Assembly (NCBI GenBank): GCA_964554715.1
Contig: CAZKPU010000022.1
Location: 1 to 20,038, forward strand
Reading direction: 5' to 3'
DNA from: an uncultured Thermotogae bacterium
GTDB taxonomy: Bacteria; Bipolaricaulota; Bipolaricaulia; UBA7950; UBA9294
Length of the DNA stretch: 20,038 nt
This document shows, piece after piece, positions 1-4,026 of this stretch. The notes under the pieces were generated by a model. It ran no database searches and had not been told where the DNA came from. It saw nothing but the letters and a program-made list of their open reading frames with translations. Made by a program: the position numbers and the translations under genes. Within the stretch, counting starts at the first letter, position 1. Each line of letters begins with the position of its first letter.

Positions 1-693
1 CGAACCATCTGCATTCAGAACCAGTGTCCCATGGGTCACATCCGAGAGCAGTGACACCGATTCGCCGCCGTCGGGGACGGAGTCGTTGGCGATCACCCCC
101 GGGATGTTGACTGTGAGCGTTGTGTCTTCGGGGGTGGAGTAGTTGTCATTCACGGCATCCACCGGATCGTCGTCCGTGATGATCCGGCAGCTTGGACCAT
201 CCAGTGGGAAGCCTGAAATTCCACCGGATCCAGCTTTCGCACCGACCGAGACATCGCCGACGTCGTACCATTGATCCAACGTCAGCGTCACCGTCCGGAC
301 TTCTCCATCACTGTAGCCGGTGTCGAACTTGACGCCGTACACGCCTGTGAACTTGTCATCGGCAAGGATGTACGCTTCCGATGCGCTGACGATCTGGTCG
401 CCATTCATCGGGAAACATGACTTCGGCAAGCCCAACACCCAATGACTCAGTCCCGGCTGAGTCCCGGATTCTACGCGATAGCGCCACGTAGACGTGCCAT
501 CACTGTTGTACGTCACCGAAAGGAACGTGAAAGTGTGAGTGTCGACGACAAGGCTCGTCCCGGACAATGCCGGAAACGCCACAAACGCAGTCAACACAAC
601 CACAAAAAAAACGTAAGAAACATAATGAGGTAGATTGCGGTGAAATGAGGTAGTAGGTGAAGGTGCAAGATTCCCGAAGACCTTCGTATTCAT
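1..693 (-). CDS. Secreted/cell-surface protein with a cadherin-like (VCBS-type) repeat. N-terminal part only; the gene continues past the window start.
   Basis: The minus-strand reading frame is open from 693 to position 1 with no stop. ATG is at 691-693 (rc), with SD GGGGAGG 5 nt upstream. The N-terminus MNTKVFGNLAPSPTTSFHRNLPHYVSYVFFVVVLTAFVAFPALSGTS looks like a signal peptide. Downstream, ...DDDPVDAVNDNYSTPEDTTLTVNIPGVIANDSVPDGG matches the bacterial cadherin-like/VCBS repeat pattern. It is absent from the ORF track only because it lacks a stop inside the window. Confidence 0.7.
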   Translation of the reverse strand, partial: MNTKVFGNLAPSPTTSFHRNLPHYVSYVFFVVVLTAFVAFPALSGTSLVVDTHTFTFLSVTYNSDGTSTWRYRVESGTQPGLSHWVLGLPKSCFPMNGDQIVSASEAYILADDKFTGVYGVKFDTGYSDGEVRTVTLTLDQWYDVGDVSVGAKAGSGGISGFPLDGPSCRIITDDDPVDAVNDNYSTPEDTTLTVNIPGVIANDSVPDGGESVSLLSDVTHGTLVLNADGS

Positions 694-699
694 TATGCC

Positions 700-800
700 T
701 CCCCGACGGAACTACCAAGGCCTTGGCAGCTCGGCCACCTCAGGGAGGCCCGTAGCTTTGCGCCCCACTCTCGCGAGTGGTTTGCCGTTGTCAAGCCTGA
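700..800 (-). ncRNA. c-di-GMP-I (GEMM) riboswitch, copy 2, in the 5' leader of the cadherin-like protein gene. Its expression platform sequesters the SD.
   Basis: Minus-strand reading: cGGCAAACC-ACUCG-CGA-GAGUGGG-GCGCAAAGC-UACGGGCCU... The Vc2 riboswitch reads GGGCAAACC-AUUCG-AAA-GAGUGGG-ACGCAAAGC-CUCCGGCCU. Hairpin CCACUC-GCGA-GAGUGG (GNRA loop) is at 765-780. A 3' conserved block GGUGGCCGaGcUGCCA is shared with copy 1. Anti-SD CCUCCC (rc of 743-748) lies inside the aptamer and is complementary to SD GGGAGG (rc of 698-704). Confidence 0.7.
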
Positions 801-862
801 CGCGAGCTTCAAGCAGTTTGCCTTTCTCAGCGAGATAGTGGCGCTCTAGGTGTTGTCCTCCC

Positions 863-1186
863 TCACTTGTCCTCCGCGTTTCTCCCCTGAATGATCAGCG
901 CGCGCTCAATCGCGTCCGAGCTTGTCAGGGATTCCTCCAGAAGGATGTCGCCGAGGAGCTTATCGGTGAACTTGCTTTCTTGAAGCGTCAAACCCTTGGC
1001 GAGGTCGGCATGTGTCACCGCGCCAAGATCCAGGAGGATCTCACCCAGTCTCTTGTTGCGTTCGAAGTGCTCTTCCAGAATGGACAAGATGACGGCGCTG
1101 CGACTCTTCCTTTCCCGACGGCCTTTTTGGTCGACCTGCTCCATCAGATAGGCATCGTCCTGCGCGTAGTAGATCGTCGTTTGCAT
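863..1186 (-). CDS. Small regulator (107 aa). A ribbon-helix-helix (CopG/Arc/MetJ-like) DNA-binding domain is fused to a T2SSE_N/MshEN-like tandem c-di-GMP-binding motif.
   Basis: Likely start MQTTIYY... at 1184-1186 (rc). The upstream M at 1216 would lie inside the riboswitch terminator. RHH pattern: beta-strand TTIYYAQ, helix DDAYLMEQVDQKG, helix SRSAVILSILEEHF (cf. CopG SKSAMISVALENY). This is followed by RLGEILLDLGAVTHADLAKGLTLQ and LLGDILLEESLTSSDAIERALIIQ. Both fit the 24-aa MshEN motif RLGxx(L/V/I)(L/V/I)xxG(L/V/I)(L/V/I)xxxxLxxxLxxQ. Confidence 0.65.
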   Translation of the reverse strand: MQTTIYYAQDDAYLMEQVDQKGRRERKSRSAVILSILEEHFERNKRLGEILLDLGAVTHADLAKGLTLQESKFTDKLLGDILLEESLTSSDAIERALIIQGRNAEDK

Positions 1187-1206: not shown

Positions 1207-1250
1207 CAAAACACAAGCGACCGCGTTGCCTCTCCTGGCAACCCGGCCAC
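1207..1250 (-). terminator. Intrinsic terminator/antiterminator switch forming the expression platform of riboswitch copy 1.
   Basis: Minus-strand sequence: GUGGCCGGGUUGCC-AGGAGA-GGCAACGCGGUCGC. The stem is about 14 bp (one mismatch, two G.U pairs) and is immediately followed by UUGUGUUUUG (rc of 1207-1216). The 5' arm is the conserved GGUGGCCGGGUUGCC segment of the aptamer. Confidence 0.5.
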
Positions 1251-1326: not shown

Positions 1327-1355
1327 ATCATATACGAAACACTTAGAATCGTCAA
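1327..1355 (-). promoter_or_regulatory. Sigma70-like promoter driving riboswitch copy 1 and the RHH-MshEN gene.
   Basis: On the minus strand: TTGACG (rc of 1350-1355), a 17-bp spacer, then TATGAT (rc of 1327-1332). The predicted TSS at ~1320 is ~22 nt upstream of the aptamer GGCAAACC. Confidence 0.55.
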
Positions 1356-1461: not shown

Positions 1462-4026
1462 ATGAACGACACAAGCCCGATGATGGAGCAGTACTGGAGA
1501 CTGAAATCGCAGCATCCTGGCGCGATCCTGTTCTTTCACCTCGGCGACTTCTACGAGACGTTCTTCGACGACGCAAAGACGGTCGCTTCGGAGCTGGACG
1601 TTGTGCTGACGGCACGAAACGGCAATCCCATGGCTGGTGTCCCTGTGCGAAGGGGGGAAGCCTACATCAACCGCCTGTTGAAGAAGGGCTACAAGGTCGC
1701 GATCTGTCAACAGGTAGAGAACCCGAAGAACGCGAAGGGACTGGTGAAACGCAGGATTGTCCGGGTTGCCACACCGGGAACGGTTCTTGACGAGGACGTG
1801 CTGGACGCCGGGACCAACAACTACTTGGTCGGGATCTTCTCGCAGGAAAAGCACGCACTGGCGGTTGCCGACCTCTCAACCGGCGAGTTTCGATGCACGA
1901 CAGGTCTTGACGAATCGGCGCTGGATGGCGAGCTGCATCGGCTGTCGCCGTCCGAGATCCTCGTTCCGGCTTCCTGGAGCCCAGAGAAGCTGCGGAAGCT
2001 CGACGATCTTCACGCCTCGACGAGCACCATTGAAGTAGATAAGTACGAAGCCCGAGAGATGCCGGCGCCCACAGAGGAGTTCCCGCGTGCTGCGCTTCGG
2101 GCGGCGGCGGCCGTGTACAACTACATCGTTGAGACGCAGAAGGAAGCAGCGCAACATCTCCGTCCGCTTCAGCTCTACTCCGTTGCCGACCACATGGATC
2201 TCGACCCATTCACGGTGCGCAGCATGGAGCTGATCCATCCGCTCCGGGACGGCGGCAAGAGGGGAACGATTCTCGGGGTCGTTGATCAAACCTGTACGAG
2301 CATGGGGCGTCGGCTGCTCCGGCGCCGCCTTCTTTCCCCGATGGTCGATCTACGAAAGATCACCCGGCGTCTGGATGCAGTGGAAGCGCTCGTGGGCGCG
2401 GAAATCCCGCGGCAGCAGCTGCGGGAGAGCATGAAGTCGGTTCGGGATCTGGAACGGTTGACGGGAAGGTTGGGATCCCATCGGATCCGGCCGATGGATG
2501 TCCTCCTCATCCAACGAACCCTCGAGCGAGTCCCCGAGATTGCCGGCCGGATTCCGGGCATTGACGCATGTGAAAAGACAGATGGGAAGACCACTCATTC
2601 GCGTGATGGGGAAGGTCGAGCATCGGAGAACCTCGCGGACGTGCACCGACGGTTGACGAGTTCGGCTGTCGGCGATCTCAGCGCTCTGCTGAAGAACATG
2701 CTGGTCGATCAGCCGCCGCAACACATCGGCGAGGGAGGGGTCGTCCGTGATGGCCATGATTCGACGCTCGACGGGCTACGAGCGGCGATTGCCAACACCA
2801 AAGAGAAGATCGCTGCGGTTGAAGGACGTGAGCGCGAGAAGACGGGGATCGGAACACTCAAAGTCGGCTACAACAAGGTGTTTGGCTACTACCTCGAGGT
2901 GACGCGCACGCATCTGGAGAAGGTGCCTCCGCGCTACCATCGTCGGCAAACCCTGTCCAACGCGGAACGCTTCACCATCGACGAACTCCATGGATTGGAG
3001 CAGGACATCGAGGAAAAGCAGGCGGCGGCGGTCGCACGTGAGAAGGAAATCTACGATGCGGCGGTGAACGAACTCACGCGGTCGATCCCCGAGCTCCAAA
3101 GCATCAGCGATGCACTCGCCGAGCTTGATGTTGCCTTGTCGCTGGCGCAGATCGCAGCTCGAGACGGCTACTCGAGGCCGACCTTCAACGATCGGGGCGA
3201 GATTCGGATTCGAGATGGACGACATCCTGTAGTGGAGCAAGTCGAGGAGTTCGTCCCTAACGATCTTGAGATGGACCGGAAGACCTCGCTTGTTGTTCTG
3301 ACCGGTCCCAACATGGCTGGCAAGTCCGTCTTCTTGAGACAGGCTGCAGTCATCTGTCTGCTGGCACAAGTCGGGTCGTTCGTACCGGCGCGGGAGGCGT
3401 CCGTACCGATCGTCGATCAGGTGTTTGCCCGCGTCGGCGCAAGCGACGCTCTTGCCGAGGGAATCAGCACGTTCATGATGGAGATGCTCGAAGTATCAAC
3501 GATCCTCGAGCGCGCTACATCGCACAGCTTGATCATTCTCGACGAGATGGGACGTGGGACAAGCACGTTTGACGGGATGGCGATCGCATGGGCGATTGCT
3601 CATGAGCTAGCCTCGCGGACCCAGGCGAAGACGCTCTTTGCCACGCACTATCACGAACTCACACAGCTCGCCGATGAACTCCCTTCGGTGAAGAACCTGC
3701 ACGTGACCGTGAAGGAACTCGGGGACCATGTGGTTTTCCTGCATCACGTCGAAGAAGGGATTGCCGAAGGAAGCTACGGAGTTCACGTCGCCCGGCTTGC
3801 GGGACTCCCCGTCAGGGTCACCGAAGAGGCGGACCGCATTCTCGGTTCCTTAAGGGATGAGGAGCCGCTCACTCGGTTCCAGCAGAACCGGACGCCGAAG
3901 CAGCCTCTTCCTTTGTTCGGCGCCGAAGACCACCCGGTTGTCAAAGAGATCCGCAGCATCGACACGGATCGTCTCACTCCGCTGGAAGCGCTGAACCTCC
4001 TTGTGCGGTGGAAGGAAACCCTGTAG
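1462..4026 (+). CDS. mutS: DNA mismatch repair protein MutS (MutS1).
   Basis: N-terminus MNDTSPMMEQYWRLKSQHPGAILFFHLGDFYETFFDDA aligns with E. coli MutS HTPMMQQYLRLKAQHP..FYRMGDFYELFYDDA. Walker A GPNMAGKS and ILDEMGRGTSTFDG are present. The C-terminal LEALNLLVRWKE is MutS-like. The ORF opens at 1384 (TTG), but homology places the start at ATG 1462. Confidence 0.95.
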   Translation: MNDTSPMMEQYWRLKSQHPGAILFFHLGDFYETFFDDAKTVASELDVVLTARNGNPMAGVPVRRGEAYINRLLKKGYKVAICQQVENPKNAKGLVKRRIVRVATPGTVLDEDVLDAGTNNYLVGIFSQEKHALAVADLSTGEFRCTTGLDESALDGELHRLSPSEILVPASWSPEKLRKLDDLHASTSTIEVDKYEAREMPAPTEEFPRAALRAAAAVYNYIVETQKEAAQHLRPLQLYSVADHMDLDPFTVRSMELIHPLRDGGKRGTILGVVDQTCTSMGRRLLRRRLLSPMVDLRKITRRLDAVEALVGAEIPRQQLRESMKSVRDLERLTGRLGSHRIRPMDVLLIQRTLERVPEIAGRIPGIDACEKTDGKTTHSRDGEGRASENLADVHRRLTSSAVGDLSALLKNMLVDQPPQHIGEGGVVRDGHDSTLDGLRAAIANTKEKIAAVEGREREKTGIGTLKVGYNKVFGYYLEVTRTHLEKVPPRYHRRQTLSNAERFTIDELHGLEQDIEEKQAAAVAREKEIYDAAVNELTRSIPELQSISDALAELDVALSLAQIAARDGYSRPTFNDRGEIRIRDGRHPVVEQVEEFVPNDLEMDRKTSLVVLTGPNMAGKSVFLRQAAVICLLAQVGSFVPAREASVPIVDQVFARVGASDALAEGISTFMMEMLEVSTILERATSHSLIILDEMGRGTSTFDGMAIAWAIAHELASRTQAKTLFATHYHELTQLADELPSVKNLHVTVKELGDHVVFLHHVEEGIAEGSYGVHVARLAGLPVRVTEEADRILGSLRDEEPLTRFQQNRTPKQPLPLFGAEDHPVVKEIRSIDTDRLTPLEALNLLVRWKETL

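Follow-up and report, generated by a model that had tools for sequence, protein, structure and literature searches.

Riboswitches of the c-di-GMP-I class (GEMM-I, RF01051; Sudarsan et al. 2008), which sense c-di-GMP (cyclic diguanosine monophosphate), have a three-helix architecture with the cores GGCAAAC and CGCAAAGC and an interhelical C-G pair, and in the member Vc2 the ligand is contacted by G20, A47 and C92 (PMC4744006). PMC11218506 distinguishes two scaffolds, type I with a GNRA tetraloop and its receptor, and type II with a GYRA loop and no receptor. Known ON switches for c-di-GMP precede adhesin genes, so that a surface-protein target fits this direction of control: Vc1 lies upstream of the colonisation factor gene gbpA of Vibrio cholerae, whose expression is raised by c-di-GMP (PMC4744006), Bc2 lies before cap, encoding a collagen adhesion protein of Bacillus thuringiensis (Tang et al. 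2016, cited in PMC11218506), and in C. difficile a class II c-di-GMP switch precedes a pilin gene and the surface protein CD2831 is riboswitch-regulated (summarised in PMC4744006). In tandem riboswitches, such as the c-di-GMP-I doublets and triplets of Bacillota (PMC12452182) or the glycine riboswitch, a pair of sensors for one ligand controls a single gene, which would sharpen the response. While c-di-GMP-I riboswitches and sequestration of the Shine-Dalgarno (SD) sequence are both well known, an operon with two aptamers and one gene between them is less usual. Here we describe such a layout in a stretch of 20,038 nucleotides (nt) from an uncultured Thermotogae bacterium, placed by GTDB in the Bipolaricaulota (assembly GCA_964554715.1, contig CAZKPU010000022.1, positions 1 to 20,038; hereafter the window). 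On its minus strand, positions 795..721 hold a complete, bona fide second GEMM-I aptamer (aptamer 2) in the intergenic space between a small c-di-GMP-receptor-like gene on the 5' side and the gene of a cadherin-repeat surface protein on the 3' side. We favour the reading that this is a functional c-di-GMP-I aptamer within an operon, most likely acting as a translational ON switch of the surface protein.

Rfam cmscan returned exactly two matches in the 20-kb window, both spanning the full model (Table 1). Aptamer 2 scores 70.6 bits against RF03167, whose gathering score is 59, and at both sites another member of clan CL00126 also exceeded its own gathering score and was hidden by clan competition. 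A covariance model of our own, built from 21 copies, recovered 105 aptamers from 75 related sources. In the alignment of the 103 distinct copies, paired cells amount to 96.0% and double changes are seen in 20 of 23 pairs, values equalled by none of 500 shuffles (slid controls: 22-52% paired). Fitting the alignment to the covariance model gives the structure some advantage; the signal is nonetheless large. All six pairs of the tetraloop hairpin show double changes across these sequences. Between aptamer 2 and the upstream copy, aptamer 1, two pairs of this stem differ in a fully compensatory way (A-U to U-A, C-G to A-U), and a third goes from U-A to U-G. In the second hairpin the loop measures 7 nt and a CUAAG..UAUG-like receptor is absent, which together with the GCGA loop makes aptamer 2 type II; a GYGA loop recurs in 39 of the 41 downstream copies of relatives. 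The first-pass annotation of this DNA had proposed a second GEMM copy, which the Rfam match and our own model (88.9 bits) bear out; a compensatory P1b stem (copy 2 having CCACUC/GAGUGG and copy 1 CCUAUC/GGUAGG, one change being of the G.U type) and GNRA loops in both (GCGA and GGAA, respectively), both of which are seen on the minus strand; and covariation as expected of a functional RNA, which the related copies display. The best-scoring model is RF03167, not the RF01051 that it had named.

The expression platform follows directly. The linker 3' of aptamer 2 reads CCUUGGUAGUUCCGUC and leads to GGGGAGG (704..698), CAUA and AUG (693..691), which places the start codon 4 nt past GGAGG and the SD 18 nt from the aptamer. 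As had been claimed, CCUCCC within the aptamer (748..743) is perfectly complementary to the GGGAGG contained in GGGGAGG, and the complementarity in fact reaches 10 base pairs (bp), one of them U.G. In the ligand-free fold, this 10-bp helix (749..740 with 706..697) encloses another of 10 bp (732..723 with 718..709), whose first strand comprises part of the 3' strand of the second hairpin, the equivalent of C92 and the 3' strand of P1. Because both helices use aptamer strands, the sequestered fold and the ligand-bound aptamer are mutually exclusive. The same unconstrained fold was obtained in every context of 120-200 nt, its minimum free energy (MFE) being -50.5 kcal/mol versus -36.3 with the aptamer enforced, and in the window the unpaired probability of the SD rises from 0.00 in the free fold to 0.52 once the aptamer is enforced. 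The combination of a G+C-rich stem and a following U tract before the start codon, which marks a terminator or antiterminator, is missing: 720..693 holds no U tract, in line with the earlier observation, and a consensus terminator scan gave no terminator-like site on the minus strand. The translational control suggested at first pass is thus supported by an SD that an aptamer segment can sequester in MFE and ensemble folds.

On the mechanism we propose, without c-di-GMP the linker strand UUGGUAGUUC (718..709) would invade the aptamer 3' strand GAGCUGCCAA (732..723), which contains the base equivalent to C92 as well as the 3' strand of P1, and the freed GCCUCCCUGA (749..740) would then pair with UCGGGGAGGC (706..697) and bury the SD. 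Bound c-di-GMP would lock P1 and the second hairpin and so block the invasion, leaving SD and AUG accessible for synthesis of the surface protein. In this it would behave as translational riboswitches do generally.

Relatives of the locus allow this proposal to be weighed comparatively. We collected 80 genomic loci with the 107-residue protein encoded upstream of aptamer 2, of which 65 count as clearly related (tblastn E <= 1e-24); the majority bear the label Bipolaricaulota/Acetothermia, and many others "uncultured Thermotogae". An aptamer lies 3' of the gene in 40 of 44 loci (gene and at least 150 nt downstream available) and 5' of it in 46 of 50 (at least 200 nt upstream available), both being absent from the same four loci. 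The full order of aptamer, 107-residue gene, aptamer and giant surface-protein gene returns in 40 of the 44. The closest relative with the same cassette is L082 (metagenome contig Ga0272443_10001264), with an adhesin N-terminus 70% identical and 101 of 107 residues shared in the upstream protein. About a third of its platform bases differ from the window, neighbouring linker bases included, and the 10-bp anti-SD helix is intact through two one-sided changes (U.G to C-G, G-C to G.U), while seven pairs of the inner switching hairpin persist. The RNAalifold consensus of the window and L082 is the sequestered fold, and enforcing the aptamer in L082 raises the unpaired probability of the SD from 0.00 to 0.88. 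L030, distantly related and with the gene of a DUF11 protein downstream, pairs CCUCCUUGA with UCAAGGAGG, which relative to the window involves one double change (C-G to U-A) and a U.G to U-A, and its SD goes from 0.04 to 0.82 unpaired. Of 34 loci, 15 gained more than 0.2 in SD accessibility when the aptamer was enforced, and two lost accessibility. SD masking as a family-wide theme of translational control therefore appears well supported by these comparisons, as does, at the lesser level of being supported, the specific switch of two 10-bp helices for the subgroup of the window. The long 10-bp helix itself is a trait of that subgroup (window, L082 and L030), not of the family. Further orthologs were scarce: a metagenome scan with the adhesin N-terminus gave L082 as the sole close relative, along with L083, whose aptamer is divergent (27.7 bits), and a protein search gave one match, P0121, from a locus (L092) that has no aptamer. 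A second GGGAGG lies at 862..857 of the minus strand, directly 3' of the stop codon of the upstream gene, and is likewise complementary to the anti-SD CCUCCC, for which it could compete; we take the site as coincidental, given that it is absent in L082 and that the MFE is unchanged in long contexts.

Several results weigh against our proposal. The sequestered fold lies about 10-14 kcal/mol below the aptamer secondary structure (ensemble energy gap 9.7-13 kcal/mol), so that a switch would depend on tightly bound ligand, on kinetic control during transcription, or on both. A gap of this size is comparable to the binding energy of a ligand of picomolar to nanomolar affinity plus tertiary contacts, and folding during transcription would favour the aptamer first. 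When the 18-nt linker was shuffled with GGAGG kept, the SD was at most 2% unpaired in 23% of shuffles and the energy gap was equal or larger in 15%; the window fold by itself is not exceptional, and thermodynamics alone is no proof of design. Duplex energies of own and swapped aptamer/SD pairs in 32 loci were -8.49 and -8.77 kcal/mol (permutation p = 0.85), and with no signal in this test we dropped the idea that the anti-SD helix is co-adapted throughout the family. In most relatives one finds just CCUC/GAGG, or a small GCCUC...GAGGC hairpin directly after or overlapping P1, and in L007 and L014 a stand-alone sequestering hairpin is not opened by aptamer enforcement in the model. Ortholog support for the helix amounts to three sequences with mostly one-sided changes, and the CCUC of the second hairpin could serve structure only. 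Vc2, the best-studied member of the class, has moreover been described, reportedly, with both directions of control. We infer the ON direction for aptamer 2 as the best-supported one in these models, rather than as a demonstrated fact.

The other switch of the locus bears on this direction. Aptamer 1 is followed by a terminator-like platform that a simple terminator scan left uncalled because its U tail is interrupted. The 3' strand of the aptamer itself forms part of this terminator, from which we predict antitermination by bound ligand, an ON response of aptamer 1. The same design is found in the gene-proximal upstream copies of 44 loci (within L002-L053), all 44 of which carry the aptamer 3' strand (CCGGGUUGCCAG), its complement and a U-rich run, with at least five U in 8 nt in 44 of 44 and at least six in 36; we predict that these copies, like aptamer 1, are transcriptional ON switches. 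Only 3 of 39 downstream copies have five or more U in 8 nt, and the first-pass claim of a different expression platform for copy 2 therefore holds family-wide. Downstream aptamers are instead followed by GGAGG, at 2-9 nt in about 23 loci and at 12-29 nt in about 10, the window (18 nt) included. The logic of copy 2 mirrors that of copy 1: the same aptamer strand does the switching in both, and what comes after its complement in copy 2 is the SD strand instead of U's. If aptamer 1 is ON at transcription termination and aptamer 2 ON at translation, the surface protein would require c-di-GMP twice.

A translational OFF switch, in which the compact bound aptamer, or a pseudoknot between the loop UCCC and the SD, hinders the 30S subunit so that c-di-GMP lowers synthesis, seems unlikely to us. 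An SD only 2-9 nt past P1, as in many relatives, is near enough for steric effects, the loop UCCC is single-stranded in the folded aptamer and could contact GGGA, and Vc2 is said to repress tfoY translation. Against this, the SD of the window is 18 nt away, the strong alternative helix requires an unfolded aptamer, and the bound-state models raise SD accessibility far more often than the reverse (15 versus two of 34 loci). Adhesins are also usually promoted by c-di-GMP, and aptamer 1 of the same operon is predicted ON.

The translational ON switch would sit in the middle of a transcript. On the minus strand, the promoter-like site (1355..1327) is followed by aptamer 1, an open reading frame (ORF) of 107 codons, a 67-nt spacer, aptamer 2, the linker, the SD and AUG; mutS lies on the strand opposite to this riboswitch operon. 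No promoter-like site was found in 863..795 of the minus strand, and TTGACA (794..789) belongs to P1 and the joiner and lacks a -10 partner, in agreement with the earlier statement that no convincing promoter precedes this copy. Nor was a terminator-like element found between the upstream gene and aptamer 2. In relatives, the gap from stop codon to aptamer is 9-20 nt in 12 of 41 loci and within 60 nt in 32. With no promoter or terminator of its own in sight and such short gaps, read-through from the upstream gene, previously called plausible, is the simplest reading, and aptamer 2 is presumably co-transcribed with that gene. It is improbable, in our view, that a separate transcript begins with aptamer 2, driven by a promoter within the upstream gene or directly behind it, which would make it an ordinary riboswitch of a 5' untranslated region (UTR) and not an intercistronic one. 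The 67-nt gap after the stop codon in the window would leave room for this, the promoters of the phylum may follow rules of their own, and the cassette-like replacement of aptamer and gene (stub 834..810, see below) points to a unit mobile as a block; however, the sole sigma-70-like site on the strand is that upstream of aptamer 1, no terminator-like element intervenes, and in 12 of 41 loci the aptamer starts at most 20 nt past the stop codon.

As for the ligand of this proposed ON switch, c-di-GMP is expected because the contact bases are the canonical G/A/C. Their conservation was assessed in 90 family copies, the aptamers flanking the regulator gene in relatives (Table 1); the C92 equivalent is C in all but one truncated copy that does not reach the position. 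C762 and G735, equivalents of the interhelical C44-G83 of Vc2, are present in the window, with columns kept in 103 and 101 of 105 copies, and would form the tertiary pair. It is very improbable that the aptamer senses a ligand other than c-di-GMP, be it as a c-di-GMP-I-GGC variant (RF03167) or as a GEMM-Ib aptamer of the cyclic GMP-AMP (cGAMP) type. A at the G20 equivalent marks the cGAMP-selective GEMM-Ib riboswitches of Geobacter, whereas aptamer 2 has G there. What speaks for another ligand is that RF03167 is the top Rfam match of both window copies and of most relatives. The GGC variant, first described by Weinberg et al. 2017 PNAS, presumably reads G20/G47/C92, in agreement with the consensus of the RF03167 model. 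At the A47 equivalent, that consensus reads CGCGAAgC, compared with CGCAAAgC in RF01051, and we took the defining base of the variant from these two model lines; both window copies have CGCAAAGC, and the conserved G of RF03167 is replaced by the canonical A in all 90 copies, theirs included. Since the best model in relatives alternates between RF01051 and RF03167 at similar scores, the scaffold rather than the pocket seems to drive the assignment, and RF03167 probably scores best as its shorter model suits the short type II scaffold. By its sequence, aptamer 2 would be a canonical c-di-GMP-I type II aptamer and not a GGC variant, and annotators should be warned that a top match to the GGC-variant model does not imply a variant pocket. 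Elsewhere in the family, two aptamers (L038:4383-4457 and L023:3851-3948) have A in place of G at the G20 equivalent (AAGAGCAAACC) and could be cGAMP sensors in the phylum. A weak match (27 bits) in L061:267-340, with CGCGAAGC and G at the A47 equivalent, is otherwise degenerate; no other locus offers a candidate for a true GGC pocket. Least probable of all is a main output by Rho-dependent termination or mRNA decay after an untranslated leader, which would matter through polarity in a very long regulated gene and has precedents in the many translational riboswitches coupled to Rho or RNases (examples in PMC11218506), but which lacks specific sequence support here and would be a consequence of SD masking, not a rival to it.

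The gene between the two aptamers is of interest in its own right. Pfam gave nothing above threshold for the 107-residue protein, only a weak match to RHH_1 (E = 0.02). Residues ~41-103 match the MshEN/GSPII domains that bind c-di-GMP in PilF (6f8l, E 7e-12), PilB and MshE (5htl, E 2.6e-3) in a profile search of PDB sequences, and the fold predicted for the protein can be superposed on PilF-GSPIIB in complex with c-di-GMP at 1.1-1.2 A for 57 residues. One stretch, RLGEILLDLGAVTHADLAKGLTLQ, fits the 24-residue MshEN motif, and a second motif (LLGDILLEESLTSSDAIERALIIQ) lacks the first Arg, the spacer being 7 residues, not 5. The N-terminal half is weakly ribbon-helix-helix (RHH)-like, matches to CopG/Arc folds having probabilities of 0.4-0.75. 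The earlier label "regulator" can thus be refined, on the profile match and predicted fold, to what looks like an RHH-like plus MshEN-like protein and putative c-di-GMP receptor; a literature search of limited coverage found no description of an RHH-MshEN fusion. Hundreds of metagenomic proteins share 70-79% identity with it, the named ones mostly labelled Candidatus Bipolaricaulota.

The downstream genes are, on the other hand, large and locus-specific, with Ig-like, DUF11, DUF7507, PKD, cadherin-like, Big_9, CARDB and VWA domains, and contigs often end inside them. The surface protein of the window has a Cadherin_4 match from residue 173 (E 1.3e-11), and that of L082 has Cadherin_4/5 and Big_9 repeats. 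Upstream of aptamer 2 lies a stub of another aptamer, unique to the window contig among all loci, whose TCGCTGAGAAAGGCAAACTGC (834..814) repeats, without a mismatch over 21 nt, the 5' end of the aptamer that lies downstream in L002 and L091. These two are the closest relatives (regulators 96% and 98% identical), and their surface-protein gene is another one. It looks as if an L082-type cassette had replaced "aptamer plus adhesin" here and left the stub as a scar. This leads us to a tentative and rather doubtful idea, namely a conserved Bipolaricaulota module that would read c-di-GMP three times, by the terminator riboswitch, the RHH/MshEN-like protein and the SD riboswitch, and whose output would be a swappable giant-adhesin cassette with its own aptamer, the stub at 834..814 being the scar of an exchange. 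If true, adhesins could be exchanged between close relatives and still remain under c-di-GMP control.

The family holds further variants of the arrangement. Two tandem upstream aptamers occur in five loci (L022, L026, L030, L035 and L040; about 3670-3950), which with the downstream one makes three c-di-GMP-I aptamers per operon. The downstream aptamer at L027:4369-4417 seems truncated (37.7 bits), the SD sitting where the second hairpin should close, and L017 (4378-4545), L019, L032, L036, L003 and L034 have the second hairpin extended at its tip by insertions of 42-67 nt, a few of which contain internal repeats.

Table 1. Features of the riboswitch operon, in positions of the window (bits, covariance-model score).
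Feature	Position	Strand	Details
Promoter-like site TTGACG-17-TATGAT	1327..1355	-	upstream of aptamer 1; only one on the strand in 500-1500; conserved in L082
Aptamer 1, c-di-GMP-I, GGAA loop	1233..1306	-	Rfam 68.1 bits; matched by own model
Terminator-like platform of aptamer 1	1208..1248	-	GGCCGGGUUGCC (1248..1237, aptamer 3' strand) / GGCAACGCGGUC (1230..1219), then GCUUGUGUUUU
Upstream gene	863..1186	-	107 residues; RHH-like N-terminal half, MshEN-like putative c-di-GMP-binding C-terminal half
Aptamer stub	810..834	-	TCGCTGAGAAAGGCAAACTGC (834..814), as in L002 and L091
Aptamer 2, complete c-di-GMP-I (GEMM-I), type II scaffold	721..795	-	RF03167 70.6 bits, E 3.3e-15, model 1-80; own model R1 88.9 bits
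P1 of aptamer 2	CUUG 795..792 / CAAG 725..722	-	possible extension AGG 798..796 / CCU 720..718 around bulged G721
Tetraloop hairpin CCACUC-GCGA-GAGUGG	765..780	-	GYRA loop 774..771; closed by pairs G785-C760 and C784-G761
Second hairpin	728..757	-	AGCUACGGGCC (757..747), loop UCCCUGA (746..740), GGUGGCCGAGCU (739..728); short, no tetraloop receptor
G786	786	-	Vc2 G20 equivalent, ligand contact; G in 88/90 family copies
A759	759	-	Vc2 A47 equivalent, intercalating base; A in 90/90 family copies; RF03167 consensus has G
C726	726	-	Vc2 C92 equivalent, ligand contact; inside switching hairpin in the alternative fold
Anti-SD strand GCCUCCCUGA	740..749	-	top of second hairpin 5' strand plus loop; MFE and ensemble folds, RNAalifold with L082
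Switching hairpin	709..732	-	GAGCUGCCAA (732..723) / UUGGUAGUUC (718..709), loop GGCC, no U tract after
SD-containing strand UCGGGGAGGC	697..706	-	SD core GGAGG 702..698; pairs with 749..740 in the ligand-free fold
Surface-protein gene, 5' part	1..693	-	ATG 693..691, hydrophobic N-terminal segment, bacterial cadherin-like domain from residue 173; ORF leaves the window

Overall, our analysis adds evidence of riboswitches that would place surface proteins under the control of c-di-GMP in the Bipolaricaulota (Acetothermia/OP1), a phylum without a cultured model. Literature searches of limited coverage found nothing on riboswitches in Acetothermia or on intercistronic c-di-GMP riboswitches, and nothing relevant on c-di-GMP in Bipolaricaulota other than one general review. 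The main interest of the locus lies less in aptamer 2 itself than in the conserved double-switch operon with its MshEN-like middle gene, a natural operon that would read the same ligand twice, the first gene through termination only and the second through termination and translation. Such a design should give the adhesin a steeper and later response than the small c-di-GMP-binding protein.

Among described systems, aptamer 2 is most like the type II members of the c-di-GMP-I class, with which it shares the architecture, cores, contact-base equivalents and interhelical C-G listed at the outset, the GYRA tetraloop without receptor and the position upstream of a surface or adhesion gene; it differs in its origin from an uncultured phylum, in lying between two genes of one predicted operon and not in a first 5' UTR, in its very short second hairpin and in its top score to a sister model. 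With that sister, c-di-GMP-I-GGC, it has the best-scoring model and the same short scaffold in common, but the G presumed to define the variant is A here. Vc1 likewise places a c-di-GMP-I aptamer before an adhesin gene, but in a monocistronic 5' UTR, with a mechanism that is no simple mapped SD sequestration and with an unrelated scaffold and platform. Bc2, a c-di-GMP-I ON switch before a cell-surface adhesin, acts by a terminator/antiterminator (cited in PMC11218506), and in this resembles aptamer 1, not aptamer 2. Compared with tandem riboswitches, finally, the two aptamers of the window have a coding gene between them and different read-outs, termination and then translation, so that the first gene is served by one switch and the second by two.

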